This document shows positions 4,381 through 55,549 of a stretch of DNA of 64,000 nt, in pieces. The notes beneath the pieces were generated by a model. It was not told the DNA's origin. It was given only the letters and a program-made list of their open reading frames with translations, and searched no databases. Numbering within the stretch: the stretch's first letter is position 1; each line of letters starts with the position of its first letter. The stretch spans positions 30,090 to 94,089 of the IMG/VR virus record IMGVR_UViG_3300037483_000299. One strand, written 5' to 3'. The DNA comes from a virus. The position numbers were made by a program, and so were the translations under genes.

Positions 4381-6753
4381 GTGGCGGATCAATTCGACGG
4401 CTTAGAGGATCAGGGCAACTTCACGCCCGGCTCCACGGCATCCGACGACGTGGCGCGGGAGAACCTACTCACGCTCGCGCAATCGGACCCGGAAGGCTGC
4501 GCCCGCCGGCTGCTAGCCGATTGGGACGCCTCAAACAAGCACGTCAAGAGTCTCAAGGCGCAATGGAAGGTGAACCGCGCACGCGCGAAGGGGTTTACCG
4601 GCGTCTCCCTCATCAAGCAGCAGGACGAGAACAAGGCATACATCCCCATCGGGGCCCGGCAGTCTGTTGCCGGCATGAACAAGGCCGCGCGGCTCAAGCG
4701 GCGTCTCCGGGCCCAGATGTTCGCCGATCCCGCCAAGCCAGAAGCGACCCCGAGTACAGATGAGGACCAGGACCGGGACGCGGCTGAGCTGGCGACGCGG
4801 GTCCTCGAGGATCTGTGCTCAGAGGGCAATCTCGATTTCAACTTGAAGGCTGGCGATGCCTTTGACCTCGGGTCGGATTACGGGTCCGGGTTCATCCGGT
4901 TCTGGGTTGATCCCTACGGTGGCGGGAATAAGCCGAAGGACATCTACGCCTCGCCGTTCGCGGTCACTGAGCAGGAGCCGTTTGCGCTGGGGCCGGCCGG
5001 GGAGAAGGCCCCGCCCCGGCTCCGGTACGTGACCGTCAAGGGCCAGATCGTGGACGATCCCAAGCAGGCGGCGCGGGTCTGGCTGCCCAAGCTCCGGGAC
5101 GAACTCCTCACCGGGCGGCAGGTGCGCTTCCTGCCCCATACGGCCCGGGATCTCTGGGATGCAGACGCGGTGATGGTGGGGGCGATGGTGCCGCTGGGGG
5201 TGGTGAAGGCCATGTTCCCCGAGCTGGCCAAGAAGCCCGATGTGGAGATCCAGAAACTCACCGGCTATCGGCCGCAGGAATCGGCCGACCTGTTACCCTC
5301 CGGCAAGAAGGATCATCGCGGCTCGGGGGATGTGGACGCGCAGTACGTCTTCGTGCTCTCCCGCTATCACAAACAGTGTGCCGACTACCCGCAGGGCGCG
5401 TATCTCGTGCTGGTGGGCGAGTCGTATCTGGCCCATACCGGTGAGTGGTACGATACCGAGGCCGATCAGCCGCTCGACATTCCCCTGACGCAGTTCGGGC
5501 ACTACCACGAGGAGGACAATCCCTACAAGCAGGGGACGATGGAGCTGCTGGGGCCGGGGAATGAAGTGCGGGCCATGATGCTCGGCGCGATGCTGGAACA
5601 TCTCGACAAGTTCCTCAACCGCCGCATCTTCGTCCCGCTCACCTCCGTCCTCAAGCCGGAACAACTCCAGTCCGAGACCGCGAGTGTCATTCAAATCAAC
5701 CCCGGCGGAGAGCCGTTCTACGAGCAGCTACCGGATTTCCCGGTCTCGGCCGAGAAGATGTATGCCATGACCGGGGACGACATGGACGATGAATCCGGGT
5801 TGCAGGAGAGCGGGCAGGGCGGCGAAGTCCCCAGCGTCACGTCGGGCAAGCAGTTGACTCAGATCATCGAGCAGGTGGTGGCCGGGCTGTCGGAGCTACG
5901 GGAGAACACGATCCGGGGCTTCGTCCGCGGCTGGCGCATCATGCTCCAACTCACCCGGGCCTATTACTCGATGCCCCAGAAGATCAAGTGGATGGGAGAG
6001 GATGGGGGCTACAAGGTCAAGGAATGGACCGGCTCGGACCTGGGGGGCACTCGGGACGTGCGGATGTTGAAGGGCAGCTTTACGCAGTTGACCCCCGTCC
6101 ACAAGGCGAACCTCGCGCTGACCTATTTCGGGGTCCGGGATGCTCAGGGCCAGCCGTTGCTCGGGCTCCAAGATGTGCGGCACCTGATTACCGGGGAAGT
6201 CGGGCCCTGGCTCGGGATGCGGGACGATCCCCACCGGATGCGGGTCAAGCGGCAGATCAGCCAGTGGTCCGAGGGTCCCCCGGAGGGCTGGCAACCGCCA
6301 CAGGCGCCGACCGACCCATTCACCGGCCAGCCGGCGGTTGATCCCAATACCGGGCAGCCGGCCCAACCGCCCCCCGATCCGACGTTGACCAGCATCTTCG
6401 CCCCTGTTCCGGTGGACGAGGAACAAGCGGTGGCGGTGATTCGGACGGAGGAGCTGGGCCGAGCGATGGCGGGCGGTCGGTATGCTAGGATGCCCCCACC
6501 GTGGCAGGCTGGGCTCCAGATGGCCTATCAGACGGCCCGGCAGGCGGCAGGGCAGGCCACGGTCCGGGAACAGCAGCAGGCCGCCCAGGCTCAACAACAG
6601 CAGGCCGTCCAGGTGGAGAAGGAGAAAGAAGCGGCCAAGGTGGAGGGGAAGATCGCGGTCGAGCGGGCGGTGACGCAGATGGGGGGCATGGGTGGGGGAA
6701 TGATGAGCAAGCCGGGAGACGGGCGGCCGGTGATGGGTGGGATGACGCGCTAG
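4381..6753 (+). CDS. Portal protein (P22/podovirus-like)
   Basis: 790 aa after TerL, D.DAAELA..VL and SGKQL..IIEQ portal-like segments, Q/P-rich C-terminus, GGAGG RBS. Confidence 0.8.
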   Translation: MADQFDGLEDQGNFTPGSTASDDVARENLLTLAQSDPEGCARRLLADWDASNKHVKSLKAQWKVNRARAKGFTGVSLIKQQDENKAYIPIGARQSVAGMNKAARLKRRLRAQMFADPAKPEATPSTDEDQDRDAAELATRVLEDLCSEGNLDFNLKAGDAFDLGSDYGSGFIRFWVDPYGGGNKPKDIYASPFAVTEQEPFALGPAGEKAPPRLRYVTVKGQIVDDPKQAARVWLPKLRDELLTGRQVRFLPHTARDLWDADAVMVGAMVPLGVVKAMFPELAKKPDVEIQKLTGYRPQESADLLPSGKKDHRGSGDVDAQYVFVLSRYHKQCADYPQGAYLVLVGESYLAHTGEWYDTEADQPLDIPLTQFGHYHEEDNPYKQGTMELLGPGNEVRAMMLGAMLEHLDKFLNRRIFVPLTSVLKPEQLQSETASVIQINPGGEPFYEQLPDFPVSAEKMYAMTGDDMDDESGLQESGQGGEVPSVTSGKQLTQIIEQVVAGLSELRENTIRGFVRGWRIMLQLTRAYYSMPQKIKWMGEDGGYKVKEWTGSDLGGTRDVRMLKGSFTQLTPVHKANLALTYFGVRDAQGQPLLGLQDVRHLITGEVGPWLGMRDDPHRMRVKRQISQWSEGPPEGWQPPQAPTDPFTGQPAVDPNTGQPAQPPPDPTLTSIFAPVPVDEEQAVAVIRTEELGRAMAGGRYARMPPPWQAGLQMAYQTARQAAGQATVREQQQAAQAQQQQAVQVEKEKEAAKVEGKIAVERAVTQMGGMGGGMMSKPGDGRPVMGGMTR

Positions 6754-22454: not shown

Positions 22455-23390
22455 ATGCCGAGTTTCGCACGGATCGCGTCGGCCTTCAGCGCCCCGGTCA
22501 TGGGGCTGCTCTTGGGGCAGGAGGACAAGCGGAAGCGCGAGAAGGAGGACGCCGACCGCGCCCGGGCCGAACGCTTGGACTTGATCCGTCAACGGCTACT
22601 AGAGACGCAGATCGCTGGCTTGCAGACTCAGCAGGCGGAGGCCAGTAAGACGAAGGAGCTGGCGGGCTTGCAGGCCAACCGAGATGAGGCGTTGCAGAAC
22701 GAGCGAGCGGCGGACTTCCAACAGCGGTATGGAGCTGAAGCGGTGCCGAGCGGGCTGCATCCCGAGATTGCGATTGAGCGGGGCGAAGCTGCGGAGAAAC
22801 GCGAGACGGAGGAACGGGGACGGGAGCACGCCTTGAAGGTGGCCGGGATGCGGACCGAGGCGTCCGCAGCGACGCAAGAGGGCGTTGAATATCAACGTCA
22901 GTTCCAGCGGGAGAACGCCCTGGCCGATGACTACGCCCGAACGGTGAAGCCGTGGGAGATCCCGTATAACGCGCTCGTGCGCGGGAAAGGGAGCATGGCC
23001 GAGGCGAAGGCGGGGAACTCGGCGGCGCAACTCCAGATGCTCTACGCCTTCATCCAAACGCTGGATAACTCGGTCGTGAAGGAAGGCGAAGCGGCGATGT
23101 TCGCCCGAGCGGCCCCCTATCTCTCGCGGGCGCAGATGTACGCAGATCGTATCAATAACAAAGGGGCGGTGATGACGGCGACGCAGGTTCAAGAAATCGC
23201 CGACATCTTGACTCAGGTGGAACAGCAATTCGCGGATCGGTTCGCGTCCTACAAGCGGTACTATCAGAACCGGGCGAAGAAGTGGGGGATTGATCCCTCC
23301 TCCTTCATGGACATCCCGGAGACGTTTGGGGCTGGGAAAGATGAGGAACCAGAGGATGAGATGACCCCCTATCTCCAGCCGGGGCTCTAA
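22455..23390 (+). CDS. Putative DNA ejection protein
   Basis: Coiled coil, LD.SVV.EGE motif. Confidence 0.55.
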   Translation: MPSFARIASAFSAPVMGLLLGQEDKRKREKEDADRARAERLDLIRQRLLETQIAGLQTQQAEASKTKELAGLQANRDEALQNERAADFQQRYGAEAVPSGLHPEIAIERGEAAEKRETEERGREHALKVAGMRTEASAATQEGVEYQRQFQRENALADDYARTVKPWEIPYNALVRGKGSMAEAKAGNSAAQLQMLYAFIQTLDNSVVKEGEAAMFARAAPYLSRAQMYADRINNKGAVMTATQVQEIADILTQVEQQFADRFASYKRYYQNRAKKWGIDPSSFMDIPETFGAGKDEEPEDEMTPYLQPGL

Positions 23391-25039
23391 TGGATGAGCA
23401 AGCGATTCTCGACGCTGCCGCCCGGATGCTCGGAGACGGGATTGATCCGGCGAAAGTCGATGCGGCCGTGCGGCGCCGGACGGGCATGAGCCTGTCGGAA
23501 CTCGGGGCGAAACTTGGCAACGTGCCACGCGATACCCCCGAAGCGCCGAAGCCATCAGCCGGTGAGCAGCGGCAAGAGCGATTCCTGCGGGCGACCGGCG
23601 TCACTCCGGCTGGCTCCGAGGGTGCGGAGAACGCCCAGGATCAGACCCGGCTCATGGCGCATGGCGCGGCCTTCGGGCTTACGGATGAACTGCGGGGCGC
23701 GATGGCAGGTGTGATCCCCGGGGGTGAGGGGTACACCGAGGCCCGGGATACCGAACGCGAAGCTCTTGCGGAAGCCCGGGGCCGTCGGTCCCCGTTGGCG
23801 GCTGGTGGGCTGGAAGCGATGGGCGGGCTTGCTGCGCCCGGCATGGGCGCGGCGCGCTTCATCGGGAAAGGTGTTGGCACGGGGGCCAAGATGCTCCGCG
23901 GGGCTGCGGCCGGCGGGACTGCGGCGGCAGCCTATGGAGCTGGTGGGGAAGGCGGGCCTACTGAACGGGGCGTGGAAGCCCTCAAGATGTTTCCCATTGG
24001 GGCGACGTTGGGGGGCGTGGCCTCAGGGGCGGTCCCGCTCGCCAAAGCCGTAGGCCGTGGGGCGTATCATGGTATGGGGTTCATCGGTCGGGCTACTAGG
24101 GAAGTGAGTCGGGAACTCCGGGGCCCCCTCCGAAATGCCGAGTCTTGGGTCCGGGAACAGGCTCGGGAGGCCGGAACTAAACTGACCCCCGCGCAAGTCA
24201 CCCGTCGGGCGGAAATCCGGTTAGCCCAGCTTGAGGGAGACCTGATGGCCCCGATGCGGCCCAAGCCGCCCCAGAAGCCCCCAGAGGCCCGGCCAGACAC
24301 CTACGAGGGGTTGGTGGCGGCTCAGGCGAAGATTGAGCGGGAGCTGGGGACGACGGAGGCCGCCCGGCCCGCCCAGACCGGCCAGTCCGCCCATCCCCAA
24401 CCGCCCCGCCGACCGAGTGACTTACGGATGGAGCCCGTCGCGTCCGCCACGCCGGCCGGAACTGTGCGGATGGCCAAGCCGCCGCTGCGGCTGGAGTCCT
24501 CCTTGCCGCCTCAACTGGCCGAGAGTCCTATCGGGCGGGCGCTTGATCCGGTGGCGCTGACTCGCCAGCAGCCGCACGCGACGCAAGCCCAGATGGCGGT
24601 CCGCAGCGCGCCCATTCTCTCCCGGGTGAGTGGCCTAGACGAGATTCGGGCGGTGGGGTTGAAGGCGTTTCAGGAGGGCGATCAGGCCACGCTCGACGCG
24701 GTGAACAGCGTGCTCAAAGAGCGGGGCATGGCGTTTGACTGGACCACGATCGCCGAGGAAGCGGCGAAACAAGGAAGGCGGGGACGCGTGCCAAACCCTA
24801 AGCCGGGGGGCGCCCCAGAAGTTTCACGCCCCGTTCCGTCGGTAGGCCGCACAATGACGGCGACGGTGGAGGGGCGAAGCTACGAAATCCCTGAACGGTG
24901 GATGCAGGGTGCCACACTTGGTGGTCGGCGTTCTCAGCAAGAAGCAGTACAGCTATGGCACGAGCAGGCATTGGCCGAAGAGGCGGTGACTGGAGTACCA
25001 ACATCTATCCCATCGCGACAATCCCGGAACCGCCGATGA
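23390..25039 (+). CDS. Large putative DNA ejection protein
   Basis: G..FGL.DEL motif, Gly/Ala-rich. Confidence 0.55.
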   Translation: MDEQAILDAAARMLGDGIDPAKVDAAVRRRTGMSLSELGAKLGNVPRDTPEAPKPSAGEQRQERFLRATGVTPAGSEGAENAQDQTRLMAHGAAFGLTDELRGAMAGVIPGGEGYTEARDTEREALAEARGRRSPLAAGGLEAMGGLAAPGMGAARFIGKGVGTGAKMLRGAAAGGTAAAAYGAGGEGGPTERGVEALKMFPIGATLGGVASGAVPLAKAVGRGAYHGMGFIGRATREVSRELRGPLRNAESWVREQAREAGTKLTPAQVTRRAEIRLAQLEGDLMAPMRPKPPQKPPEARPDTYEGLVAAQAKIERELGTTEAARPAQTGQSAHPQPPRRPSDLRMEPVASATPAGTVRMAKPPLRLESSLPPQLAESPIGRALDPVALTRQQPHATQAQMAVRSAPILSRVSGLDEIRAVGLKAFQEGDQATLDAVNSVLKERGMAFDWTTIAEEAAKQGRRGRVPNPKPGGAPEVSRPVPSVGRTMTATVEGRSYEIPERWMQGATLGGRRSQQEAVQLWHEQALAEEAVTGVPTSIPSRQSRNRR

Positions 25040-25374
25040 TCCCCCGCCTCGTGGCCCTTGCCCTGCTGGCTGTGGTCGTGCTGATCGCCGCCGGCCCGCT
25101 GCGCCCGCTCTACCAGCGGGTCGAGGCGTGGACGTGGGCGCAGGACGAACGGACCTGGGTGGCGCACGGCCTGATCCTGCTGATGGTCGGATTCAGTAGC
25201 GCCGTACTGATCGGGTGGTTCGGTCTCGGGTTCACCGGCTGGGGCATGGGGTGGTACGCGCGGCGGGAGAACGTGTTCACCGGCGAGCCGATGAGCACCG
25301 ACAACTGGATGGACTTCCTGGCCCCTCAACTCGGGGGCCTGCTGGGGTTCGCCCTGGGGCTGGTGGTCCGGTGA
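25036..25374 (+). CDS. Membrane protein, near-identical to 47664-48002
   Basis: Several TM segments; WYARRE and WMDFLAP motifs. Confidence 0.75.
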   Translation: MIPRLVALALLAVVVLIAAGPLRPLYQRVEAWTWAQDERTWVAHGLILLMVGFSSAVLIGWFGLGFTGWGMGWYARRENVFTGEPMSTDNWMDFLAPQLGGLLGFALGLVVR

Positions 25375-25658
25375 CGCCGGCCGAACTGACGGCGATCACG
25401 GCCGGCGTCGGCCTGTTGGGTGGCGTCGGCGGCTGGTTTCTCAAGGCCAAGACGGAGCCGAAGGCCCGGAACGGGAACGGACTGGGGAAGGAGCTTGCTC
25501 TAGCCATCACGGCCGATGGGGAACGGACCCGCCAGACGATGAAAGACGAGGGGGAGCGGACGCGGGAAAACACGGTGAGCCTCATCACGGCACTCCAAGC
25601 GCAAACGGAACTCGCGATGATCCGGGCGGCACAGATGAGCCGGCAGGGGGCGGCGTGA
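25371..25658 (+). CDS. Single-TM protein with coiled-coil tail
   Basis: N-terminal hydrophobic helix; GTGA coupling. Confidence 0.55.
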   Translation: MTPAELTAITAGVGLLGGVGGWFLKAKTEPKARNGNGLGKELALAITADGERTRQTMKDEGERTRENTVSLITALQAQTELAMIRAAQMSRQGAA

Positions 25659-25984
25659 TGGCCCGTATCCTGATTGTCGAGGATGAGGCCAGCCTGTTGC
25701 GGGTGTTGCTCACCTACTTGACGGAGATCGAGCAGCACGAGGCGGTGGGCGTGAGCACGGCCGACGATGCCCGGGACGCGGCCCAGCTGGGTCCCTGGGA
25801 CATGGTGGTCACGGATCGGATGTTGCCGGAGGGGGAGGACGGGGAACGGCTCCGGAGCGCCTTTCCCGGGACGCGGTTCCTGACCATGACCGGGGTGGAC
25901 CAGTGGGAGGCGGATGTGCGGAAGCCCTTCAGTCTCGAAGAAATTGGCGCCGTCATTCGGGCGCGCCTCGCGGTGGCGCCATGA
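25658..25984 (+). CDS. Stand-alone response-regulator receiver (CheY-like) protein
   Basis: ILIVEDE, DMVVTD..LP..DG, MTG, KPF motifs. Confidence 0.88.
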   Translation: MARILIVEDEASLLRVLLTYLTEIEQHEAVGVSTADDARDAAQLGPWDMVVTDRMLPEGEDGERLRSAFPGTRFLTMTGVDQWEADVRKPFSLEEIGAVIRARLAVAP

Positions 25985-26151
25985 GTGTCGAGCTATGGGC
26001 GGGCCTGATCGTGCTGCTTCAGGTGGTGGGCCTCCTCTTGAAGCTGGAGGAGCGGGCGCAGCGACGGAAGTTCCAGGTAGATCTTGAGGAGTGGCGACAG
26101 ACGATGCGACGGGTCCGGCAACCAGACCCCAACATGTGCGCGGAGGAGTGA
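25981..26151 (+). CDS. Single-TM small protein
   Basis: Hydrophobic N-terminus plus charged helix; ATGA coupling. Confidence 0.55.
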   Translation: MSVELWAGLIVLLQVVGLLLKLEERAQRRKFQVDLEEWRQTMRRVRQPDPNMCAEE

Positions 26152-26152
26152 C

Positions 26153-26434
26153 GTGAATCCGAAACTGGAAGCGGCGAAAGAGCGGCGGCGGCTCGCGCTC
26201 ACCACGCCGGACGTGCAGAAGTTCGAGAAGTCGCTGCCCGCGATCATCGCCGCGGTGGTGCGGTTCGGCGGGCCGGAGCACTGCTTCCTGAACATTCACA
26301 GCACCGTGGCCGAGACCGGCGCGCCCGACGCGTGGTGGGAAGTGGTGCCCACGGATCGGGCGAAGCTCGCTGATGGCGAGGACCCGCCGAGCGGGGACGA
26401 GAGCCATCCGTGCCCACCCTTCCTGGACTGCTGA
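26153..26434 (+). CDS. Small protein ending DESHPCPPFLDC (candidate peptide precursor)
   Basis: GGAGGAG RBS, GTG start; C-terminal motif shared with 48290-48523. Confidence 0.7.
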   Translation: MNPKLEAAKERRRLALTTPDVQKFEKSLPAIIAAVVRFGGPEHCFLNIHSTVAETGAPDAWWEVVPTDRAKLADGEDPPSGDESHPCPPFLDC

Positions 26435-26986
26435 GTGCCGCCAGCATGGCAGGAAGTCTTTCACCTGGCCGGCCTACTCCCGCTCCTGATCCTGGGCGGG
26501 CTACACCTCTGGGGCGTCCGTCGGGATTCTCGGGACTGGTGGCTGGCCTCTGGCTTTGCCGTCTCCTGGGTGGCGGACTTGGCAGCACATTGGGCCGATC
26601 CCTGGCTCGTGTCGCACGTCTATTCCGTGGGGCAGGCGGGATGCCTGTACGGGGCGCTCACGACGCCACGCCGCGCCTCCTGGCTGCTTGGACTGACGGG
26701 CCTCGTGGCCGCGTGGTCGCTGTCTGCCGGACCCGTGACCGCGCCGGCCGTGGCGGTGTGGGTGGTGAGCGCCGGGGTGATCTTGTCCCTGATCTGGAAA
26801 CGTCGGGATCTCGGGCTCCGCTGGTGGGGGCTGCTCGCGTACTTCGGGCTCGGGCTCGCGTTCCGCGTGTGGTTCCCGCTGGCCTTGGACGATGCGGAGA
26901 CGTTCCGGGTGGCCTGGCTCGGCTATCAGGCGTGTCGGATGGCGGGCCTGTCGCTGGTGAGCTGGGCCCTCTTGAGAGGACCGTGA
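26435..26986 (+). CDS. Multi-pass (about 6 TM) membrane protein
   Basis: Hydrophobic; homolog of 48517-49044. Confidence 0.75.
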   Translation: MPPAWQEVFHLAGLLPLLILGGLHLWGVRRDSRDWWLASGFAVSWVADLAAHWADPWLVSHVYSVGQAGCLYGALTTPRRASWLLGLTGLVAAWSLSAGPVTAPAVAVWVVSAGVILSLIWKRRDLGLRWWGLLAYFGLGLAFRVWFPLALDDAETFRVAWLGYQACRMAGLSLVSWALLRGP

Positions 26987-26987
26987 C

Positions 26988-27275
26988 ATGGCGCGCCTGA
27001 GCGAAGCCACCAAGCAGACCATCGGCACCGCGCTCACGCTGCTCGGCAAGGTGCCGACCACGCCCGCGCGCATCATGGTGACGCTGTTGCTGGGATTCGG
27101 GACGGCGGTCCGCTACTGGCTGGCCGCTCCCGGTGGCTGGTCGCCGTCCTGGGAATGGCTGGGCTTCCTGTCGGTGTGGGCGGGAATCGACGCGGCGCAG
27201 TTCTACGGGAAACGGATGACTCACATTCCCCCTGCGGCGGAGACGCCTGGGGCACCGGAGGCGACACCTGGATGA
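26988..27275 (+). CDS. Holin-like 2-TM protein
   Basis: Two TM helices, basic KR after TM2; GAGGA RBS. Confidence 0.5.
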   Translation: MARLSEATKQTIGTALTLLGKVPTTPARIMVTLLLGFGTAVRYWLAAPGGWSPSWEWLGFLSVWAGIDAAQFYGKRMTHIPPAAETPGAPEATPG

Positions 27276-27444
27276 CGCCAAATGTAGTGCTGTCGCTACG
27301 GTTTCTGTCCGTCAGGGTCGGACCAGCCCGAGCGTCCGTCCGAGCCAGAGAAGCGCCACGATGGGGGCGAGGTGAGGCTTCCGGGCAAGCCAGCGAAGGA
27401 TCTGCATCGAGACTCTCATGATCAATGGAAAAGGACGCCGCTGC

Positions 27445-28530
27445 ATGAAAAGTGCCACCGTATTACTCGCCACGATGTTGGCGCTCACCAGTCCCCTGCA
27501 CGCCCAGGATACCGTCCAGGTCAGGCCAGGAGCGATGGTCTGCGGCGGCTGGGTGGTGCCTGACACCACGCCCGGGACGGTGTTCCGCTGCCAGGTGAAC
27601 GGGCCGAACGATATGCGCCGGGTGCGCGCAGTTGTCGTTGTGGTCGTGGTGGACAGCGTGCCGGTGCTGCTGCCGCCACCTCCTCCACCCCCGGTAGACA
27701 CGCTGCCGCCCCCGCCACCACCGGACACCGTGTCAGCAGGGACCGCGCCAACCTACGATCCGGCGCGGGACCTCCTCTTGGTGGCCGACAACTTCGACAT
27801 GTGGGACGGCTTCAATCGGCGGAACGTGCCTGGGGCGCATCTGCGGGTCTATCGGGACTCGGCCATCGGCGGCGGAAACCCGGCGGCGACGGTCAGTTTC
27901 ACGCCGGGCCGGACGGGTCAGGCCGTCCGGATCACGTATCCGCAGCAGGTGGGGACGGCGCAAGGCCGGCAGTATGTCGGGACGGTCAATGTCTCCACGC
28001 CGGCGGGCGTCTCGAGCTTCCAAGAGTTCTGGGTGCGGCTCTCGTCTGGCGCCTCGCCCACCGGGACCGGGCCTAAGTGGGTGCAACACTACCACGCGAC
28101 CCTCGGCACCGCGCAGCGCATCCAGATCGGGTCCTTCAAGTTCCCTTCTGGGTCAGCCTCACTCGACGGGATGCCAGCTCGCGATTACTGGCACGTCAAC
28201 AGCCTCGCCAACTCGCTCGCGCTCTCGCGGGGCGGGCCGCGGTGGCGGGACATCGCGGATGGCGCGTGGCATCAAGTCACGACGGAGGTCCGGGCGCACA
28301 CCGCGCGCGGGTCCGGCGATGGCGTCGCTCGGATGTGGATCGACGGGACGCTCGTAGTAGACCTATCGGCGACGGGTGTGCGGGCGGGCTGGACGGACGC
28401 GAGCGAACTGGCCCAGCTCGTCGCTGGCGTGGCCATCACCGACATCCACCTGGGCGACCTGCTCTATCTCGGGACGGTGCCCACCTGGACGCTGGACGTG
28501 GATGACTTCCGACGGTGGCGGGCGCGGTGA
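27445..28530 (+). CDS. Secreted protein: signal peptide, shared N-domain, poly-Pro linker, LamG/lyase-like domain
   Basis: MKSATVLLATMLALTSPLHA-Q signal; N-part shared with 49524, C-part with 14542. Confidence 0.75.
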   Translation: MKSATVLLATMLALTSPLHAQDTVQVRPGAMVCGGWVVPDTTPGTVFRCQVNGPNDMRRVRAVVVVVVVDSVPVLLPPPPPPPVDTLPPPPPPDTVSAGTAPTYDPARDLLLVADNFDMWDGFNRRNVPGAHLRVYRDSAIGGGNPAATVSFTPGRTGQAVRITYPQQVGTAQGRQYVGTVNVSTPAGVSSFQEFWVRLSSGASPTGTGPKWVQHYHATLGTAQRIQIGSFKFPSGSASLDGMPARDYWHVNSLANSLALSRGGPRWRDIADGAWHQVTTEVRAHTARGSGDGVARMWIDGTLVVDLSATGVRAGWTDASELAQLVAGVAITDIHLGDLLYLGTVPTWTLDVDDFRRWRAR

Positions 28531-28866: not shown

Positions 28867-29703
28867 CTACACCGCATGAATCGCCTTCAGGAACCCGCAG
28901 TCGTGTCCGTGAAAGTCGGTGAACTCCACGATCTGGAATCCTACCGCGAGCAGGCGCGCGGCGAGATGCCGGGCCCGGTCCCGTTTCTCAGCCGGCGGGG
29001 CGTGCCATTCGATGGCGAGCTGGCGGATCTGGCCGAGCAAGAGATCGGGCGCCGCATCGAGAATCCCGTACTCCGCCCCCTCGCAGTCGAGCTTCAGGAA
29101 GTCCACCCGGTCGAGCTGATGCCGGGCGAACAGGGAGGCGAGTGAGGCCACCGGCACGGTCATCGTTCCGGTGGGGTGCGCGAGGCGGGCCGGGTCAGTG
29201 GTGTGCAACGCCCCCTGTGCGCCCTGGTAGAGCGTGAGCTGGCCATCGGTGTCGCCGACGGCGGAGGCCACGATGGAAGCCGCGAACCCGTTCCGTCGCA
29301 GATTGTGGGTAAGCAGCGCGAAGTTCTCCGGGTCGGGCTCGTAGGCGATCACCCGCGCGTCCAGCGAAGCGGCGAGGACGGAGAACGCCCCGATGTTCGC
29401 CCCGATGTCCACCACGACATCCCCCGGTGCGATGGTGAGCCCGTGGGTCAAATACTCTCGATCTGCGGCGATCTTCCGGACAATCCCGGCGTCCCAGGTT
29501 TCGCGGCGCACACGGAAGCGCAGACCGCCCGCCGTCACGGTGCGATACGTGAGGCCGGCCCGCTTCAGGCCGCGCTCCAAGCGCACCGCGACGGCATGGG
29601 GCAGTTCGCCACGCGCCACGGCCCGGAGCCCACGCCAGGTCGCAGAGCCGTCGGGCTTGGGCTGTACCGGCTCCACCACACGGACAGGATCAGGGATCGT
29701 CAT
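28867..29703 (-). CDS. FkbM-family SAM-dependent methyltransferase
   Basis: VVDIGANIGAFS, YEPDPEN, DFLKLDCEGAEY; start moved to ATG 29703. Confidence 0.9.
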   Translation of the reverse strand: MTIPDPVRVVEPVQPKPDGSATWRGLRAVARGELPHAVAVRLERGLKRAGLTYRTVTAGGLRFRVRRETWDAGIVRKIAADREYLTHGLTIAPGDVVVDIGANIGAFSVLAASLDARVIAYEPDPENFALLTHNLRRNGFAASIVASAVGDTDGQLTLYQGAQGALHTTDPARLAHPTGTMTVPVASLASLFARHQLDRVDFLKLDCEGAEYGILDAAPDLLLGQIRQLAIEWHAPPAEKRDRARHLAARLLAVGFQIVEFTDFHGHDCGFLKAIHAV

Positions 29704-29738
29704 GCCGACAGGATGCGCGATTCTCGTGCCCGGAACAA

Positions 29739-29779
29739 CTACCACTAGTGGTAGCCGTAGACCTACCACTAGTGGTAGG
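29739..29779. promoter_or_regulatory. Two tandem perfect palindromes CTACCACTAGTGGTAG (29739-29754, 29763-29778), putative operators
   Basis: Exact 16-bp palindromes 24 bp apart, just upstream of FkbM. Confidence 0.7.
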
Positions 29780-30542
29780 GCAAAATGCGAGACTTCCGAG
29801 CCCCGCGTTCCGGGGTAGAATGGCGGAGCCGGGGGGCCGGACGAATACGGAAGGGAGCCGCCTATGGAGTCGTCGCGTGGTGTGTGGCTGGACCCCTCTT
29901 GCTGCGCCCGTAGGAAGTGGTAGGTTGGGAGACGTTCAACCGGGCGTTGTGCCACCGTTCACCCGGGGTGTCGTGGGATTCGGCGCCGCTCACTCAACGG
30001 GATGGCTTGTCCCTGGCGGGATATTCAAGAAATCCGGGCGCTGACCCACCTCCGTCAACCCGGTCCCGTGCCACCATGCTAGCGACAAGTGCAGGCCGCC
30101 TCGTACGGCCGAAAGAACAAGCTCGACCCTGGGGTCCCTGGTACGGGCCACACCCAAAGCCGAGCTTGCGAGCCACAGTCCCTGGCGGGGTAAAGCGGCA
30201 CCCCCAACCTACTAACCCGGGGCCTCAGTGTAAAGGCACGGGATAGGGAGGAAGCGCCCTAGGTAGCCGGTTGCTGGGGGCATTCCGGGGGCTCTGGGTC
30301 GCCGAGAGTGGCCCTTCCCGCCACATGCAAGTTCTTGCAGTCTAGGGGTGCAAAACCTGTCACTTGCGTTTGCAATGTGAGGGCCTAGATTGCCTCCACC
30401 ATGACATGCCCACGTTGCAAACGACCCATCGCCCCCTGGCCGCTCAGGCGACCCAATCTCTGTAGCCCGGCCCATTGGGTTCGGTGCATCCGGTCGGACC
30501 TCCACACTACCCCACAGTAGCGTTGCAATGGCTTCCAGGCCC

Positions 30543-41395: not shown

Positions 41396-41568
41396 AGGTC
41401 GCAACACGGGTGTTCTGGACGCTGGCCACGTTCGTTGGCGTGCTCCTGCTTTTCGGTATGGTGTTCGATCCTGATGAAAGGGCGCCCTGGATCGTTCTGG
41501 GTCTGGTGTCGGCCATCGCCCTTATCTCTTGGTTGTGGCGCCTCGCGGGTTGGATCGACAGGCCGTGA
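41392..41568 (+). CDS. Small 2-TM membrane protein
   Basis: Two hydrophobic helices; coupled. Confidence 0.55.
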   Translation: MKVATRVFWTLATFVGVLLLFGMVFDPDERAPWIVLGLVSAIALISWLWRLAGWIDRP

Positions 41569-42617
41569 GTGCCTGGAAGCGCGTCCCCGATGGGCCGTAC
41601 TACCTCGACTGGCAGCGACGGGGCATCGGGCGGATCTGCGTTTCCTCCGGCACGCGGCGCCTCAAGGTCTTCCGTCGCATCGAAGCGATGCTCGGGGACC
41701 TCTACGACCAGGGCCGGCTCGACGTGCTGCGGGCCATCAAAGAGCAGACGCACCCGGTCATGGTGGTCTTCGATGCGCACCGCCGGGGCCGACTCGACCT
41801 GCTCCCGCTCTCCGAATCCCTGACCCCGCTCCGGCCGGCGGTGGACGCCTGGATCGCGCGGGCGGGCGACACCGGCCGGCGCGCGGCGAACTACCGGACC
41901 GCCCTGAACCGGATGCTCCGGCACGCGGCCCGCGATCCCATCGTCCACGACCTGCCCGGCTGCGTGAAGGCGGATCGGACGGGGAGCCAGGACAGCGGCC
42001 AGGTGACCAGCCACAACCGGGCGCGCGCCGCCTGTCTCGCCTTCCTGCGGGACACGCTGGGAAAGGAGCACGCCGTCTATCGCATGGCCGTGGCGGTGCC
42101 GGCGCTGCCCCCAGCGCCCCGTGCTGACCGACCGCGCCTCTCGGTGGCCCAGGCTGAGAAGATCCGGGACCGGCTGCCTGGGGCCCTGGGTGGGGCCTGG
42201 TGGAGTCTCTGCCTCACCGGGATGATCGTCTCGGAGCTGTGGGGCGTCTGGGCCGTGCGCGCGGATCACGTCCGCATCCGGGGCACTAAGACGGGCGGCC
42301 GGGATCGGATGGTGCCCTGGGTGGCGGCGCTGGCCCGACCAGCCTGTACCCGGCGCGAGCTGTCCGCCGCCCTTACCGCGCTCGAGCTGGAGTCCTACGA
42401 CGCACGCCGGGCCTTCGCGCACTGGATGGAGGAGGCCGGCATTCCCCGTGCACGGCGGAAGGGGTACCTCGGGCACAAGCCGAGCGACACGACGGACCTC
42501 TACGAGATGGGGGACTTGAGCCGATATCTGCGGGAGGACGGGGCGAAACTCCGGGCCTACCTGGTCCGTGAGTCCCGGAAAATGTCCCAACGGACCCGGA
42601 ACCGGAGGCGGGCGTGA
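41565..42617 (+). CDS. int: Tyrosine recombinase/integrase
   Basis: TGM..SEL, GTKT, YDARR, LGH, TTDLY; adjacent tRNA-derived att core. Confidence 0.85.
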   Translation: MSAWKRVPDGPYYLDWQRRGIGRICVSSGTRRLKVFRRIEAMLGDLYDQGRLDVLRAIKEQTHPVMVVFDAHRRGRLDLLPLSESLTPLRPAVDAWIARAGDTGRRAANYRTALNRMLRHAARDPIVHDLPGCVKADRTGSQDSGQVTSHNRARAACLAFLRDTLGKEHAVYRMAVAVPALPPAPRADRPRLSVAQAEKIRDRLPGALGGAWWSLCLTGMIVSELWGVWAVRADHVRIRGTKTGGRDRMVPWVAALARPACTRRELSAALTALELESYDARRAFAHWMEEAGIPRARRKGYLGHKPSDTTDLYEMGDLSRYLREDGAKLRAYLVRESRKMSQRTRNRRRA

Positions 42618-42837: not shown

Positions 42838-43536
42838 GTGAGCCTCACCCCCTACTACGAGGCGGACGGCATCACGATCTACCACGGAGACTGCCGGGAA
42901 ATCATGCCAGAAGTGGCGGCAGCCGACCTCGTAGTCACCGATCCTCCGTATACGTTCGGCTTGGCGTCAACGAGTGGACGCCTAGGATGGGGCGACCTGA
43001 TGAACGCAGCCACGTTCTATGCTGACATTCTGCGCTCCGTCCGGCGTCTCACGGCAACAAGGAATGGCGCGGCGTGGCTGTTCAACTCGTGGCGAACGTT
43101 CCCCGTGATCGCTCGCGCGGCGTGGGAAGCTGACTGGCCTGTAGTGTCTTTGCTGGTGTGGGACAAAGGTCCGGAGGTTGGCATGGGCGGGAAAGTCGGC
43201 CTGCGGGCACAGTATGAGTTGTGCGCGTTGTTCGCCCAAGAGGGATTCTCAATCTCGAATCGTTCAGCAAAGGACATCGTGAACGTGCCTTGGGGTGGTT
43301 CCGCGCCCCGGGAATACCACGCCGCCCAGAAGCCCGTCGGTATCATAACGCACATCCTGAGCGTCAGTCTGGACCATGCTGGGTTAGTGCTCGACCCTTT
43401 CATGGGCTCCGGCACAACGCTTATTGCCGCTCGCACCGCTGGGCTTCCGGCCATCGGCATAGAGATTGAGGAGCGGTACTGCGAGATCGCGGCGGAGCGG
43501 TTGAGCCAAGGAGTGCTCAACTTGGGGGCCGGATGA
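42838..43536 (+). CDS. DNA amino-methyltransferase (N6-A/N4-C, beta class)
   Basis: TDPPY, H..QKP, VLDPFMGSGTT. Confidence 0.92.
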   Translation: MSLTPYYEADGITIYHGDCREIMPEVAAADLVVTDPPYTFGLASTSGRLGWGDLMNAATFYADILRSVRRLTATRNGAAWLFNSWRTFPVIARAAWEADWPVVSLLVWDKGPEVGMGGKVGLRAQYELCALFAQEGFSISNRSAKDIVNVPWGGSAPREYHAAQKPVGIITHILSVSLDHAGLVLDPFMGSGTTLIAARTAGLPAIGIEIEERYCEIAAERLSQGVLNLGAG

Positions 43537-43913
43537 CTCCTCACCCCAAGCCCGCGCCCCGCGCTCCCCAGGAGCCGAAGCCCCTGAAACGTCGGTCCTG
43601 GATCGCCCGGGGGAAGCGCCCGAAGGCCCGGAAGGTCACCAAGGGGGGCCGGAACACGATGCCGGAGAAGATCGCCTGGCTCCATGAGCAGGGTTGTGCC
43701 GTCTGTGGTGCCCGGCCCGTCGAGGTCCACCACGAACGCCGCCGTGGAGGCCGAGCAGACGACCGGCAGACGATTCCCCTCTGCCCCGCCCATCACCGCA
43801 CTGATCGGAAATCCCGCCATGTGCTTGGGGGCTATGGATTTGAAGTGTGCCACGGGGTTTATCTGGACGGCCTCTGTGCGGAGTACCAGCGACGATGGGA
43901 GGACCGGTTCTGA
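43533..43913 (+). CDS. HNH-like/DUF968-type putative nuclease
   Basis: CAVC..VEVHHER..DD..TIPLCP.HHR; paralog of 229-615. Confidence 0.7.
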   Translation: MTPHPKPAPRAPQEPKPLKRRSWIARGKRPKARKVTKGGRNTMPEKIAWLHEQGCAVCGARPVEVHHERRRGGRADDRQTIPLCPAHHRTDRKSRHVLGGYGFEVCHGVYLDGLCAEYQRRWEDRF

Positions 43914-44247: not shown

Positions 44248-44685
44248 ATGGGCCGTCCCCGCAAAGAGCTGACAGGTGAGCAGGTCGAGCAAGTCGAGAA
44301 GATGGCCGGCCATGGCCTGACCCTCGACCAGATCGCGGATTGCTTGAACATCGGCGAGCGCACCCTTGAACGGCGCTTCTCCGAGGACACTGTGGTTCTG
44401 GCGGCCTATAAGAGGGGTAAGGCTGTTGCCATCAATGCAGTAGCGAAAACGGTCTATCAAAAAGCCGTTGCCGGCGAGGGCGCCTTCCCGTTCTTCTACC
44501 TCAAGACCCAAGCCGGTTGGCGCGAAACGAACCGCATGGAGGTAACCGGTGCCGATGGCGGCCCCGTTCAGCAGCACGTTACGACCGACAGTCCCCGGGA
44601 GTGGATCGAAGGCGAGTTGGCTCGCATCGCTGCCCGCCAAACAACGGTCCCGCATTCTCAGTCGGGTAACGGACGAGGCGCTTGA
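44248..44685 (+). CDS. terS: Terminase small subunit
   Basis: GRP...GLT..QIA..L.I...TL, FYLKT.AGW.ET...E.TG.DGGP. Confidence 0.85.
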   Translation: MGRPRKELTGEQVEQVEKMAGHGLTLDQIADCLNIGERTLERRFSEDTVVLAAYKRGKAVAINAVAKTVYQKAVAGEGAFPFFYLKTQAGWRETNRMEVTGADGGPVQQHVTTDSPREWIEGELARIAARQTTVPHSQSGNGRGA

Positions 44686-45943
44686 TGCCCTCCGGTGGGA
44701 TTGGCGATTCTGGGCTCGTCCTAACCAACTGGAACCCCCGGGCGACTGGGCTCTCTGGCTTCAGATGGCCGGCCGCGGCTTTGGGAAGACCCGCACTGGC
44801 TCGGAATGGATCAGCGAGCGGGTCGAGACGGGGAAGATGCGGTCGGGGCTCCTCATCGGAAAGAACCCGCGCGACGTGCGGGACTACATGCTGTACGGGG
44901 AATCGGGGCTCCTGAGTGTCGGTCCTCTGGAGAAGCGTCCTACCTACGAGCCCTCGAAACTCCTGCTCACTTGGCCCAACGGGGCCCAGGCCATCGTCCG
45001 CTCGGGGGAAGACAAAGACGTGCGGGGCCCGAACCTGGATACGGCATGGTTCGATGAGATGGCGGCCTGGCAGTACCCGCGGGAGACCTTTGAGATCGCC
45101 ATGCTGGGGCTCCGAGCAGTCCGGCATGGGACAGCGACCCAGGCTGGTGTTCGGTGTCTGGTCACGACAACCCCGAAGCCGATTGGTATCCTCAAGGAAC
45201 TGGTCTCGGCTTCCTATGTCGTGGTTACGGGCGGCACGACCTACGAGAACCTGGTCAACCTGGACGAGCAGTTTCAGCGGCTCGTGGTGGCGAAGTATGA
45301 AGGCACTACACTTGGGCAACAGGAACTCTACGCCCTGCTGTTGGAGGAAGCCGAAGGGGCGCTATGGACGCGCGAGCTACTGAATCGCACACGGGTTCGG
45401 GAAATGCCGTGCGAAGCCAAGCGTACGGTGATTGCGGTCGATCCGGCCATCTCCAAGAAGCAGGAATCCAACGAGACGGGCATTATCGCGGTGAGTCGGG
45501 GGACAGATGACCACGGCTACACTCGGGCGGATCGGTCCGGACGGTTCTCCCCTGAGGGGTGGGCGCGCCGCGTGGTACAAGCCTATGAGGACTTCAACGC
45601 GGATCGCGTGGTGGCGGAAGCGAATCAGGGTGGTGACATGGTAGAGCATACGCTTCGCACCGTGGCCCCGAACATCCCCGTCCGATTGGTTCATGCCTCG
45701 GATGGGAAGCGGACCAGGGCTGAGCCCGTGGTATCCCTGTTTGAGCAGGGCCGCGCCCACCATGTCGGGCTGTTTGAGGAGTTGGAGGATCAGTTATGCA
45801 CCTGGGAACCCTTGGGCGATATGCCAAGCCCTGACCGCCTGGATGCGGAAGTCTGGGGCTACACTGAACTATTCCCAGTGAAGCCCGTGGTTCATGCCTC
45901 CCCGGGTGGGGTGTCCCAGAAGAACCCGTGGGCCATCGCATGA
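44549..45943 (+). CDS. terL: Terminase large subunit
   Basis: AGRGFGKTR, RGP, WFDE, TTTP, VDP, E.NQGG, SPDRLDA. Confidence 0.93.
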   Translation: MPMAAPFSSTLRPTVPGSGSKASWLASLPAKQRSRILSRVTDEALDALRWDWRFWARPNQLEPPGDWALWLQMAGRGFGKTRTGSEWISERVETGKMRSGLLIGKNPRDVRDYMLYGESGLLSVGPLEKRPTYEPSKLLLTWPNGAQAIVRSGEDKDVRGPNLDTAWFDEMAAWQYPRETFEIAMLGLRAVRHGTATQAGVRCLVTTTPKPIGILKELVSASYVVVTGGTTYENLVNLDEQFQRLVVAKYEGTTLGQQELYALLLEEAEGALWTRELLNRTRVREMPCEAKRTVIAVDPAISKKQESNETGIIAVSRGTDDHGYTRADRSGRFSPEGWARRVVQAYEDFNADRVVAEANQGGDMVEHTLRTVAPNIPVRLVHASDGKRTRAEPVVSLFEQGRAHHVGLFEELEDQLCTWEPLGDMPSPDRLDAEVWGYTELFPVKPVVHASPGGVSQKNPWAIA

Positions 45944-47667
45944 CCCACATGACCCGCAAGGCCGATCCCGGGTTCGCCGGTCAGCTCGCGGCCTTGGCCG
46001 GCGGTCGGCTTGCCCCTATCGCCCGCATCGGGCCGATGGTCGAACTGGGCACCACGGGCTTGCGGCGGACTGGTGGGTTCATCTCCGAGGAACGGTTGCC
46101 CCAACTCTCTGGGGACAAGGCCCTCGCCGTCTACCGGGAGATGCGGGACAACAGCTCTGCCGTTGGGGCGCTGCTATTTGTCCTTGAGATGCTGGCCCGC
46201 GGAACCGGCAAGCGCGTTGAGGCGGGTGGGGAGTCGAACGCTGACAACCAAGCTAAGGAACTGATCCTTTCCAGCCTGGACGATATGTCCATGTCCTGGC
46301 CCGACACGCTCTCGGAGATCCTGTCGTGTGCGGTCTATGGATTCAGCTACCATGAACTCGTCTACAAGGTCCGCCAGGGGCAGCAGTCGGAGCCTGGGAA
46401 GTCCAGTCACCATGATGACGGGTTCTTGTCGTGGCGGAAATGGCCGATCCGCGCGCAAGAGACGCGGTGGCGTTGGGAGTTCGCCGACGATGGCGGGCTG
46501 TCCGGCATGCACCAGCTCGATCCGGCCACGGGCACCTATGCCTTCATCCCACTGGATAAGGCGCTCCTCTTTCGCCTGTTCGCGTACAAGAACAACCCCG
46601 AAGGCCGCAGCTTACTGCGGAATGCCTACCGGCCGTGGTTCTTCCTCAAGCGGATTCAGGAGTACGAGGCCATCGGGATTGAGCGGGATCTGGCCGGCTT
46701 GCCGGTCATGCGGATACCGGCGCAGGTCATGTCCGATGATACCCAGATGGAGAAGTGGAAGAAGCTCGTTGCCGACATCAAGCGGAATGAGCAAGCGGGC
46801 GTGGTCATTCCCTCGGACATGTACGGCGATACCGATAAGCCGCAGTACGAGTTGACCCTGCTTACGAGTGGGGGCGAGCGGCAAGTCCCCACCGATCCGG
46901 TAGTCAAGCGGTACGAGTCCGACATCCTCAAGACGGCCATTGCGGACTTCATCCAGTTGGGCAACCAGGAAGTGGGCGCCCGGTCGCTGGGCGATACCAA
47001 GGCGCAGCTCTTTGCCACCTCCGTCAACGCGCTGTTGGACAGTGTGGCCGGCGTCATCAACCGCCATGCGATTCCCCGGGTCATGGCGCTCAATGGCCTC
47101 GCCGTAGAACAGCCGCCGCACCTCGTCTTTGACGATGTAGAGTTCGAGGATGTAGTGGGATGGGCCGAAGCCGTCGCCAAGATGACGGGGGCAGGCATGC
47201 CACTCTTTCCTGATCCCGTGGTGGAAAACGTGGTGCGAAGTAAACTCGACTTCCCCGAATTGACGGAAGACGAGATCGAGCAACGGAAGATCGAGGACGA
47301 GCAGCGGGCCCAGGAACAAGAGGCGATGGACCGTGAGGCGGCCAAGACGGAACTCGATGGCGCGCGTGCGGAGATGGAACGCACGGGGGCCGATGCGGAG
47401 CGGATGCGGGCAGAAGCCCGCCGACCCACCAAGACGGAGAAGGCGGTCATGATCCATACCGGCATGATGGATATGCCCACGGCTATCAAGGAACTCAAGC
47501 AGGCAATTGCGCTCCATGAGCAACACCTTGAGGGCACCGCGCCCACCACGGGGACCGCCGGGCGGCGGTCGCAACTGCGGATGATGCGGATGATGGAGCG
47601 GGCGTTGACGGCGTTGGGCGTCCCGGATGAGGACGAAGACGGGGAAGGAAAAAAGGGGATGCCATGA
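45940..47667 (+). CDS. Portal protein (DUF935/Mu gp29-like)
   Basis: ELG.TGL, YGFS.HE.VY, NPEGRSLLRNAYRPW, GIERDLAGLP. Confidence 0.88.
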   Translation: MTHMTRKADPGFAGQLAALAGGRLAPIARIGPMVELGTTGLRRTGGFISEERLPQLSGDKALAVYREMRDNSSAVGALLFVLEMLARGTGKRVEAGGESNADNQAKELILSSLDDMSMSWPDTLSEILSCAVYGFSYHELVYKVRQGQQSEPGKSSHHDDGFLSWRKWPIRAQETRWRWEFADDGGLSGMHQLDPATGTYAFIPLDKALLFRLFAYKNNPEGRSLLRNAYRPWFFLKRIQEYEAIGIERDLAGLPVMRIPAQVMSDDTQMEKWKKLVADIKRNEQAGVVIPSDMYGDTDKPQYELTLLTSGGERQVPTDPVVKRYESDILKTAIADFIQLGNQEVGARSLGDTKAQLFATSVNALLDSVAGVINRHAIPRVMALNGLAVEQPPHLVFDDVEFEDVVGWAEAVAKMTGAGMPLFPDPVVENVVRSKLDFPELTEDEIEQRKIEDEQRAQEQEAMDREAAKTELDGARAEMERTGADAERMRAEARRPTKTEKAVMIHTGMMDMPTAIKELKQAIALHEQHLEGTAPTTGTAGRRSQLRMMRMMERALTALGVPDEDEDGEGKKGMP

Positions 47668-48002
47668 TCCCCCGCCTCGTGGCCCTCGCCCTGCTGGCCG
47701 TGGTCGTGATGATCGCGGCCGGCCCGCTGCGCCCCCTCTACCAGAAGGTGGAGGCGTGGACTTGGAAGCAGGACGAGCGGACTTGGGTGGCCCACGGGAG
47801 CATCCTGTTAATGGTGGGATTCTCTACGGCGGTGCTGATCGGGTGGTTCGGTCTCGGGTTCACCGGCTGGGGCATGGGCTGGTATGCACGGCGGGAGAAC
47901 GTGTTTACCGCCGAGCCGATGACGACGGACAACTGGATGGACTTCCTGGCCCCGCAACTCGGGGGCCTGCTGGGGTTCGCCCTGGGGCTGGTGGTCCGGT
48001 AA
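47664..48002 (+). CDS. Membrane protein, near-identical to 25036-25374
   Basis: Direct sequence match. Confidence 0.75.
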   Translation: MIPRLVALALLAVVVMIAAGPLRPLYQKVEAWTWKQDERTWVAHGSILLMVGFSTAVLIGWFGLGFTGWGMGWYARRENVFTAEPMTTDNWMDFLAPQLGGLLGFALGLVVR

Positions 48003-48205
48003 TGGTCACGGCGCTCTGGTCGCTCGCCGGGGCCATCTTGGGGACGTTGTTCCTCTACGTGACGATTGACCGCGTGCTGCGGAAGCATGGCGACCCGCGT
48101 CTCAGCCAGCGGGTCCGACGGCTGGAACAGGCGCACCGCCAACAGGAGCGGCGGCTAGAAAAGGTAGAGGGTGTCTTGCGACTGTGGCCGACGCTCCGCC
48201 CATGA
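48002..48205 (+). CDS. Single-TM protein with coiled-coil tail
   Basis: TM then RV.RLEQ...RLEKVE. Confidence 0.55.
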   Translation: MVTALWSLAGAILGTLFLYVTIDRVLRKHGDPRLSQRVRRLEQAHRQQERRLEKVEGVLRLWPTLRP

Positions 48206-48289
48206 TGGCGCTCTTGGCCGCCTTCGGGCTCACGATGGTTGGTGGCATGGTTGTCCTCTGGTATCACCTGTGGTGGAAAGGACGGTCGT

Positions 48290-55506: not shown

Positions 55507-55549
55507 TCGACACCATCATACCGCCCCACCAATCGGGGCAAGGGGTTGC

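Follow-up and report, generated by a model that had tools for sequence, protein, structure and literature searches.

A small cysteine-tailed protein and a seven-helix membrane protein encoded as a recurrent gene pair in soil and sediment phages

In the agr quorum-sensing system, a small Cys-containing protein with an amphipathic leader, AgrD, is encoded directly before a polytopic membrane peptidase, AgrB, which uses catalytic His and Cys residues, and the locus also holds a kinase, AgrC, and a DNA-binding response regulator, AgrA. In the arbitrium system of phages, AimP carries a signal peptide and matures outside the cell, AimR is a soluble tetratricopeptide repeat (TPR) receptor, and the genes belong to the early lysogeny-control region. 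Both systems were the natural points of comparison for a gene pair found in the IMG/VR virus record IMGVR_UViG_3300037483_000299. The window, that is, the whole stretch of DNA that was analysed, comprises 64,000 nucleotides (nt), positions 30,090 to 94,089, and is the last 64 kilobases (kb) of this 94-kb record. The pair occurs in it twice, in blocks called unit A and unit B; in unit A it encodes a small protein of 93 amino acids (aa) with a Cys-containing tail and a 183-aa membrane protein with seven transmembrane helices (7TM). The original prediction, made from the sequence alone, was that a disulfide-cyclised C-terminal peptide is released from the small protein and exported or sensed by the membrane protein, and that a nearby stand-alone receiver-domain protein (REC) reads the signal through a host kinase. 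The analysis described below suggests instead, with high confidence, that the small protein genuinely forms a functional pair with the 7TM protein and is inherited with it, and it points tentatively to a membrane complex acting late in infection.

The small gene of unit A spans 26153-26434 on the plus strand, as do all features described below unless stated, and its product ends in EDPPSGDESHPCPPFLDC; the tail motif D-E-S-H-P-C-P-P-F-L-D-C is encoded at 26396-26431. The TGA of this gene directly abuts the GTG start of the membrane gene (TGA-GTG), which runs from 26435 to 26986 and belongs to an undescribed family. The pair is repeated in unit B, as had been predicted, where a 77-aa small protein ending in EDPGGDNSTVCPPIC (DNSTVCPPIC; 48290-48523) is followed by a 175-aa 7TM protein (48517-49044) whose gene overlaps the small gene by 7 nt. 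The two membrane proteins are homologous (36% identity, expectation value (E) 2e-20). The likeness of the two small proteins had been thought to be confined to the tail, a view that did not hold, as they share 29% identity over 59 residues (BLASTP E 1e-4) and the alignment of the whole family has a conserved folded core.

Further loci were gathered from viral contigs (L003-L006 and L035), metagenome contigs (L007-L022) and a metagenome-assembled genome (MAG) of the Vicinamibacterales (L023). A gene for a 66-92-aa Cys-tailed protein lies just 5' of the membrane gene in all 20 loci with upstream DNA, and when units A and B are added the small gene precedes the 7TM gene in 22 of 22. Such recurrence in 20 independent loci is far beyond chance, and the co-occurrence of the two homologues, which had been set as a test beforehand, was thereby borne out. 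The two genes abut or overlap in 19 of the 20 collected loci (21 of 22 including units A and B). The sole exception is L022, where a 69-aa open reading frame (ORF; 547-756) with a CPEC-type zinc-ribbon-like motif lies between them. A reverse search of IMG/VR with a degenerate DNA pattern for the tail gave seven matches; three were genuine small genes, each with a 7TM gene downstream, and the other four were out-of-frame chance matches.

A profile search covering 1.8 billion representatives found the 7TM family in 403 clusters at 50% identity, its members being stand-alone proteins of about 115-233 aa among the matches listed. The corresponding search with the small protein gave 75 members of 66-93 aa, and an additional call of 147 aa that proved to be an over-extended start. 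Of 401 sampled genomes from the phylum to which the Vicinamibacterales MAG belongs, a single one has the 7TM family, and in it the gene lies on a phage-like contig with tail-like genes. The family was absent by tblastn from 50,697 deposited phage records, among which no cultured phage was found to carry it. The 7TM family is phage-borne and near-absent from cellular genomes.

The family alignment of the small protein (87 rows) has the consensus YxWFQGASVRxLxxRLxAAGPDxARLEVRxxGxxMTxRVV...DINDSxxCPPICP. The tail, [DP]-I-N-D-S-x-x-C-P-P-x-C(P), is its most conserved part, in agreement with the prediction that the CPPxC ending is maintained: both Cys and the first Pro are invariant, and the second Pro is found in 84 rows, N in 81 and S in 83. 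The two Cys are separated by three residues in 78 rows and by five in eight members that read CPGSPGC. The unit A tail, which is preceded by EDPPSGD, has D in place of the consensus N and five residues (PPFLD) between its Cys. His or Arg often stands two residues ahead of the first Cys, and the protein ends within 0-3 residues of the last Cys in 85 of the 87 members, the other two having 12 residues beyond the motif.

In the model of the small protein (predicted local distance difference test, pLDDT, 83) an N-terminal helix is followed by a beta-alpha-beta-beta core, an acidic linker and a tail of low confidence; the conserved folded core amounts to about 45 residues. Across the 87 members the maximum hydropathy over 15 aa is 1.7 and the mean 0.64, with no hydrophobic segment. 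The N-terminus has a net charge of +2.8 and the last 25 residues one of -2.2. Members have two Cys (66 members), three (18), four (one) or five (two), with no bias towards even numbers. Since there is no hydrophobic stretch, the N-terminus is basic, the C-terminus acidic and Cys totals mostly odd in members with extra Cys, the small protein is probably soluble and cytoplasmic rather than an exported precursor, and its tail would then be cytoplasmic as well. It differs in this from the agr precursor, being a folded protein of 66-93 aa without an amphipathic leader. No match to it was found in Pfam, PHROG, NCBIfam or PADLOC, and a sequence search of the PDB returned noise only (RpoH, E 0.036). 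The model had no Foldseek match in BFVD at E<=0.001 and reached a VIA-align Z of 3.8 at most; no carrier-protein or metal-binding family or fold was found for it, and the ESM Atlas model of a homologue is poor (pLDDT 0.39).

The membrane protein had been correctly placed directly downstream of the small one, but its predicted number of about six TM helices has to be revised, since the AlphaFold2 model made with a 119-sequence alignment (pLDDT 96.9) has seven. Loops 1, 3 and 5 and the C-terminus are enriched in Lys and Arg, a pattern that indicates an N-out/C-in topology. The near-invariant residues are P16, W35, S44, D48, Y63, Q67, F137, G138, Q165 and R168. Most of them lie in the middle-to-outer half of helices 2, 3, 6 and 7, and thus form a buried polar cluster whose conserved members are S44, D48, Y63, Q67, Y164, Q165 and R168. 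No His or Cys occurs among the invariant or near-invariant columns of the family, so that the conserved Cys/His used by AgrB is lacking; helix 7 has Cys at position 176, in its cytoplasmic half, in 76% of members, and Ser there in the window protein. The protein had no match in Pfam, PHROG, NCBIfam or PADLOC, gave noise only in a PDB sequence search (SemiSWEET, E 0.15) and had no Foldseek match in the PDB at E<=0.001. ESM Atlas returned unnamed clusters, with a low lead to DUF6962 at 0.81. An internal 3+1+3 repeat was considered and rejected after comparison of the N-terminal with the C-terminal half (hhalign E 0.016, probability 3%).

The window has a GC content of about 65%, and its coding frames are clearly marked by third-position GC (GC3). 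The four-gene layout proposed for unit A (REC, single-TM protein, Cys-tail protein and polytopic membrane protein) was confirmed, all four ORFs being present on the plus strand at the coordinates given here; GC3 is 0.83-0.85 for REC and the two members of the pair, and the 56-aa single-TM gene gives the weakest signal (0.70, for the enclosing ORF). These genes are part of a run of eight, 23390-27275, in which no intergenic gap exceeds 1 nt. The run opens with genes for a glycine-rich protein of 549 aa (23390-25039), a polytopic membrane protein of 112 aa (25036-25374) and a 95-aa protein whose N-terminal TM helix is accompanied by a charged helical tail (25371-25658), an architecture also found upstream of the pair in related loci. 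REC (25658-25984) and the 56-aa protein (25981-26151), which has a basic helix besides its N-terminal TM helix, come next, then the pair, and last a two-TM protein of 95 aa (26988-27275). After a gap of 142 nt follows a gene for a secreted polysaccharide-lyase-like protein of 370 aa (27418-28530). The operon is a late one and stands after the ejection proteins and before the lysis or lyase genes, with the pair stop/start-coupled within it. Scans of the locus for promoters and terminators gave nothing beyond shuffled expectation.

The repeat of the block in unit B spans 47664-50549. It begins with a second copy of the 112-aa membrane protein (47664-48002; 94% identical to the product of 25036-25374) and a 67-aa protein (48002-48205) that has a coiled-coil tail besides its N-terminal TM helix, and ends after the pair with another secreted polysaccharide-lyase-like gene (49524-50549; Pfam Polysacc_lyase, 31.8 bits, above the cut-off). 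The lyase-like proteins of both units have a signal peptide, a common N-terminal domain and a poly-Pro linker.

Related loci keep the same order. A TM plus coiled-coil protein comes first, then one of 65-90 aa whose TM helix is N-terminal, and after these the small protein, its 7TM partner and further small membrane proteins. In most of these loci the 65-90-aa protein carries R-x-F-G-A-Y after its TM helix, and it is probably a third component of the module. Genes for such proteins of 65-85 aa, with R-x-F-G-A-[YF] and a charged helix, were noted just upstream of the small gene at L005:4244-4501, L010:645-875, L016:1845-2075, L017:62-283, L023:4294-4491 and L035:5233-5439. The counterparts in the window (25981-26151 and 48002-48205) keep the single-TM architecture without this motif. 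An endolysin gene lies one to four genes downstream of the pair in four of the five other viral contigs. It is a Rv2525c-like glycoside hydrolase in L003 and L005 (76 and 65 bits), an Amidase_2 enzyme in L004 (110 bits) and a PHROG endolysin in L035 (E 3.6e-5), where a neighbouring gene gives weak holin and Rz-like spanin matches.

Tentatively, then, the pair is read as an obligate membrane complex of two subunits, one of them cytoplasmic, that acts late and probably in lysis control, a reading that could almost as easily be right as wrong. The 93-aa and 183-aa proteins would be the two subunits of one phage-encoded complex of the inner membrane. The membrane subunit would be a compact seven-helix bundle with a periplasmic N-terminus, a cytoplasmic C-terminus and basic cytoplasmic loops, and the small subunit would remain in the cytoplasm. 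Charge complementarity suggests that the acidic linker and the tail of the latter dock onto the basic cytoplasmic face of the former, so that the two proteins may bind each other physically, and neighbouring single-TM proteins with charged helices on the cytoplasmic side may take part. The pair would be made late, from the same gap-free operon as virion ejection genes and small membrane proteins. Because this operon is late and endolysins adjoin the pair in relatives, the proposed target of the complex is the envelope of the cell in the final phase of infection, where it might, for example, set or gate the timing of lysis like a holin regulator; the lysis-related role is thus suggested by genomic context.

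A precedent for such a role is the regulation of the holin T in phage T4, where the small cytoplasmic antiholin RIII is reported to regulate this holin (PMC8385771). Holin T with its antiholins RI, which is periplasmic, and RIII resembles the present pair by analogy, as a small soluble cytoplasmic protein would accompany a lysis membrane protein and the genes are late. There is no relation in sequence or fold, however: the T holin crosses the membrane with one helix and has a large domain in the periplasm, whereas the partner here is a 7TM bundle with an ordered polar core. We know of no Cys-Pro-Pro-x-Cys tail in RIII. Holins are small proteins that make lethal lesions in the membrane and are bound by a regulator; they usually have 1-4 TM helices, and a 7TM architecture would be atypical for one.

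Several observations weigh against a complex for lysis control. In the 7TM protein the conserved polar cluster looks towards the outer half of the membrane, and the partner is apparently cytoplasmic, so that the tail may not reach the polar pocket. A well-ordered bundle with invariant polar residues, as modelled, would also fit an enzyme or a transporter. No endolysin adjoins the pair in L006, none could be recognised near either copy in the window, and neither a Rv2525c-like (PF08924) nor an Amidase_2 (PF01510) endolysin was found anywhere in the record; the unit A and B blocks are instead followed by the secreted polysaccharide-lyase-like gene. The unit B cluster sits between the portal gene (45928-47667) and a head-morphogenesis gene (62880-63932). 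Finally, ordinary small two-TM holin candidates are already present in the loci, and the pair is therefore not needed as the holin itself.

The REC protein deserves separate comment, as it places a response-regulator-type domain near the pair in unit A, a point of likeness to agr. It is a stand-alone compact receiver of the OmpR/PmrA type (108 aa), and the claim that its key residues are intact was upheld. Its sequence aligns with that of the BasR/PmrA receiver over residues 3-104, the whole length of the domain (E 7e-6); the acceptor Asp and K-P-F fall in register (VVTD-RMLP opposite LIVLD-LGLP; RKPF opposite VKPF), and the features of a receiver domain are present, namely an acidic pocket, the phospho-acceptor Asp, a conserved Thr/Ser and Lys. 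The score against Pfam Response_reg was 27.2 bits, under the cut-off of 30.2; NCBIfam gave partial matches to PhoB, CpdR and PmrA, and PADLOC a marginal one (E 9e-4). The domain is unusually compact, about 14 residues shorter than PmrA around helix 4. Its gene overlaps both neighbours (GTGATG and ATGA junctions) and is therefore translated as part of the membrane-protein operon.

It is nevertheless the only receiver domain in the 94-kb record and has no output domain, unlike the response regulator of agr, and no HATPase_c domain and no histidine kinase were found in the whole record. The record has no sigma70 r2 or r4 domain either, and a link to an ECF sigma factor and anti-sigma system found no support. 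Unit B lacks REC, as do all five other phage records that carry the pair, one of which is complete. REC is thus an accessory insertion in unit A, outside the conserved system, to which the original prediction had assigned it; the 56-aa single-TM protein is likewise not a conserved part of the module. As an add-on of one phage, REC may couple a host kinase to the module in unit A.

The block that holds the pair varies between conserved flanks. The flanks are near-identical in the two units, where the 112-aa proteins share 94% aa identity (25036-25374 vs 47664-48002, 89% nt identity) and the 5' parts of the lyase genes, which form the right flank, 88% nt identity (27476-27722 vs 49552-49798). 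Sediment metagenome contigs show at least three different continuations at the 3' end of the 112-aa gene, at position 25372, and the block between the flanks is on that account regarded as a cassette that is swapped in nature. Over both flanks the summed contig depth is raised.

The record itself holds two different large-terminase and two different portal genes (1222-2763, 4381-6753, 44549-45943 and 45928-47667) and so looks like two phage genomes on one contig, which could be prophages in tandem, related phages in a concatemer or a chimera of the assembly. The first 603 nt of the window, before the unit A terminase, are 76-77% identical at the nt level to 41629-41890 and 43530-43904, before the unit B terminase, and an integrase-like ORF at 41529-42617 (a weak PHROG integrase match) overlaps 41629-41890. 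A methyltransferase of 362 aa on the minus strand (28867-29955; PHROG 8156, E 3e-23) lies between unit A and the early region of the phage unit that follows. Portal and head-morphogenesis genes are usually adjacent; about 15 kb lie between the unit B portal gene and the gpF-like head-morphogenesis gene, holding the membrane cluster, the lyase gene, several uncharacterised genes and a block of genes on the minus strand (55024-60399).

Among other explanations, it was considered that the pair serves superinfection exclusion, or alters the envelope or masks receptors, the 7TM protein blocking competing phages with the small protein as its cytoplasmic cofactor. The hypervariable cassette between conserved flanks, with several variants in one habitat, is typical of conflict genes; the pair also travels with a secreted polysaccharide-lyase-like gene, the unit B block is an insertion between portal and head genes, and the family is confined to phages. 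Against this, the small protein, the 7TM protein and the neighbouring TM proteins had no match in PADLOC. Exclusion genes are usually expressed early or from a prophage, whereas the pair is translationally coupled to late structural genes and has no promoter-like site of its own, and the strict four-gene order beside endolysins in relatives points rather to lysis. Exclusion is accordingly considered unlikely.

A second possibility, regarded as rather unlikely, is that the 7TM protein is a membrane enzyme, either a very distant lipid hydrolase of the YhhN type or a transferase, and that the small protein is its substrate or carrier, acylated or lipidated on Ser or Cys of the tail. YhhN (PF07947), the family of the TMEM86-type lysoplasmalogenases, was the sole recurrent Pfam signal, being matched weakly by 12 of 119 7TM members at E<=1 (best 2.2e-5). 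Both families are small polytopic membrane proteins of about 200 aa with two common local motifs, S-x-x-(G/A)-D and, in the next helix, Y-x-x-x-Q; in addition, polar residues inside the bilayer are almost invariant in the 7TM protein, and the tail maintains N, S and both Cys as a modification site would. The 7TM protein of the window, however, had no YhhN match at E<=1, and membership in YhhN was not shown, as a profile-profile comparison (hhalign) with an alignment of 12 YhhN proteins, drawn from 12 genomes belonging to the same phylum as the Vicinamibacterales MAG, was not significant (E 0.055, probability 1%), though a very remote relationship may exist. YhhN also differs in being cellular, with 14 of 81 sampled genomes positive against 1 of 401 for the 7TM family, and in having no Cys-tailed partner. 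The conserved cluster, moreover, faces the outer leaflet, whereas the small protein has no export signal, and no carrier-protein fold was found.

The shape of the 7TM model raises a third possibility, that it is a receptor for a periplasmic or outer-leaflet ligand bound in the polar pocket and that the docked small protein relays the signal to the lysis machinery; this is quite improbable. The tail would in that case dock in the cytoplasmic face much as the C-terminus of G-alpha does in a G-protein-coupled receptor (GPCR), and in unit A the relay could run via REC. The model gave a VIA-align Z of 13.8 with a designed GPCR-like fold (root-mean-square deviation 3.2, 179 aligned residues) and 11-12 with the 7TM domains of class C GPCRs, in alignments of 178-182 residues, and of about 9 with rhodopsins. 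Class C GPCRs, designed GPCR-like proteins and microbial rhodopsins also agree with it in helix order and in the N-out/C-in topology. They differ from it in that identity is only 7-13% and in that there is neither a retinal Lys nor any G-protein machinery. Because such Z values are common for helical bundles, the likeness seen in the model is best taken as a generic resemblance of fold, with no kinship shown. If a receptor role were true, the phage would take the timing of lysis from an external cue, and the swapped cassettes would represent specificity alleles.

The tail also invites comparison with metal and redox sensors, in which two CPPxC tails would share Zn or Cu, or form a reversible disulfide, and so report the state of the cytoplasm to the membrane protein. 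The invariant Cys pair, its mostly fixed spacing of three residues, the frequent His or Arg two residues before it and the common Cys176 of the 7TM protein are consistent with such a sensor. Two Cys alone, however, make an incomplete metal site, the His is not conserved, the window protein has Ser at 176, and no metal-binding family or fold was matched, so that this reading is very doubtful.

There remains the peptide signal. Some features do agree with it: the tail is the most conserved segment and usually stands at the end of the protein, the pair varies between conserved flanks (36% vs 94% identity) and exists in several variants in sediment, as specificity alleles would, the 7TM protein has a receptor-like fold with an outward-facing polar pocket, and a REC gene lies inside the unit A operon. 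Like arbitrium, the pair is phage-encoded and its small protein has a conserved C-terminal end. It departs from arbitrium in that its partner is a 7TM protein and its genes are in a late operon; neither a secreted pro-peptide with a signal sequence nor an adjacent soluble TPR receptor was found. AgrB and AgrD of Pfam had no match at E<=1, and the agr combination of a kinase and a DNA-binding response regulator is missing, as the whole record is without HATPase_c. The tailoring enzymes of ribosomally synthesised and post-translationally modified peptides (RiPPs; radical SAM, LanB/C/M, YcaO or similar) were not found by Pfam or NCBIfam in the cluster or the related loci inspected, and the N-terminal part of the small protein is a folded domain, not the unstructured leader of a RiPP. 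A released cyclic peptide, and with it an agr- or arbitrium-like layout, is therefore highly improbable, given a folded protein without signal peptide or hydrophobic leader and without even-Cys bias, two members that continue for 12 residues after the motif, no cleavage motif, peptidase, exporter, kinase or intracellular receptor in the cluster or record, no protease, ATP-binding cassette exporter or modifying enzyme next to the pair, a REC missing from the other carriers of the pair, and genes that are late and lysis-adjacent and not in a lysogeny switch.

The pair was rated as lying outside every described kind of system, with no placement in the YhhN, holin or defence families, and present evidence does not justify cataloguing the locus as a phage quorum-sensing system. 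Although the two proteins fit no described family, their linkage is as tight as that of a toxin with its antitoxin. Two confident models and a short, mutable tail motif make the pair a clean test case. It is spread over hundreds of sequence clusters in phages of soil and sediment with little-studied hosts (Gemmatimonadota- and Acidobacteriota-type contigs), whose lysis machinery is, to our knowledge, essentially uncharacterised, and it occupies the part of the genome where phages control their exit from the cell. A 7TM protein that combines an invariant, buried network of polar residues with a dedicated Cys-tailed partner in the cytoplasm would add a new component to the late phage programme, be it a lysis regulator, a sensor or a membrane enzyme.

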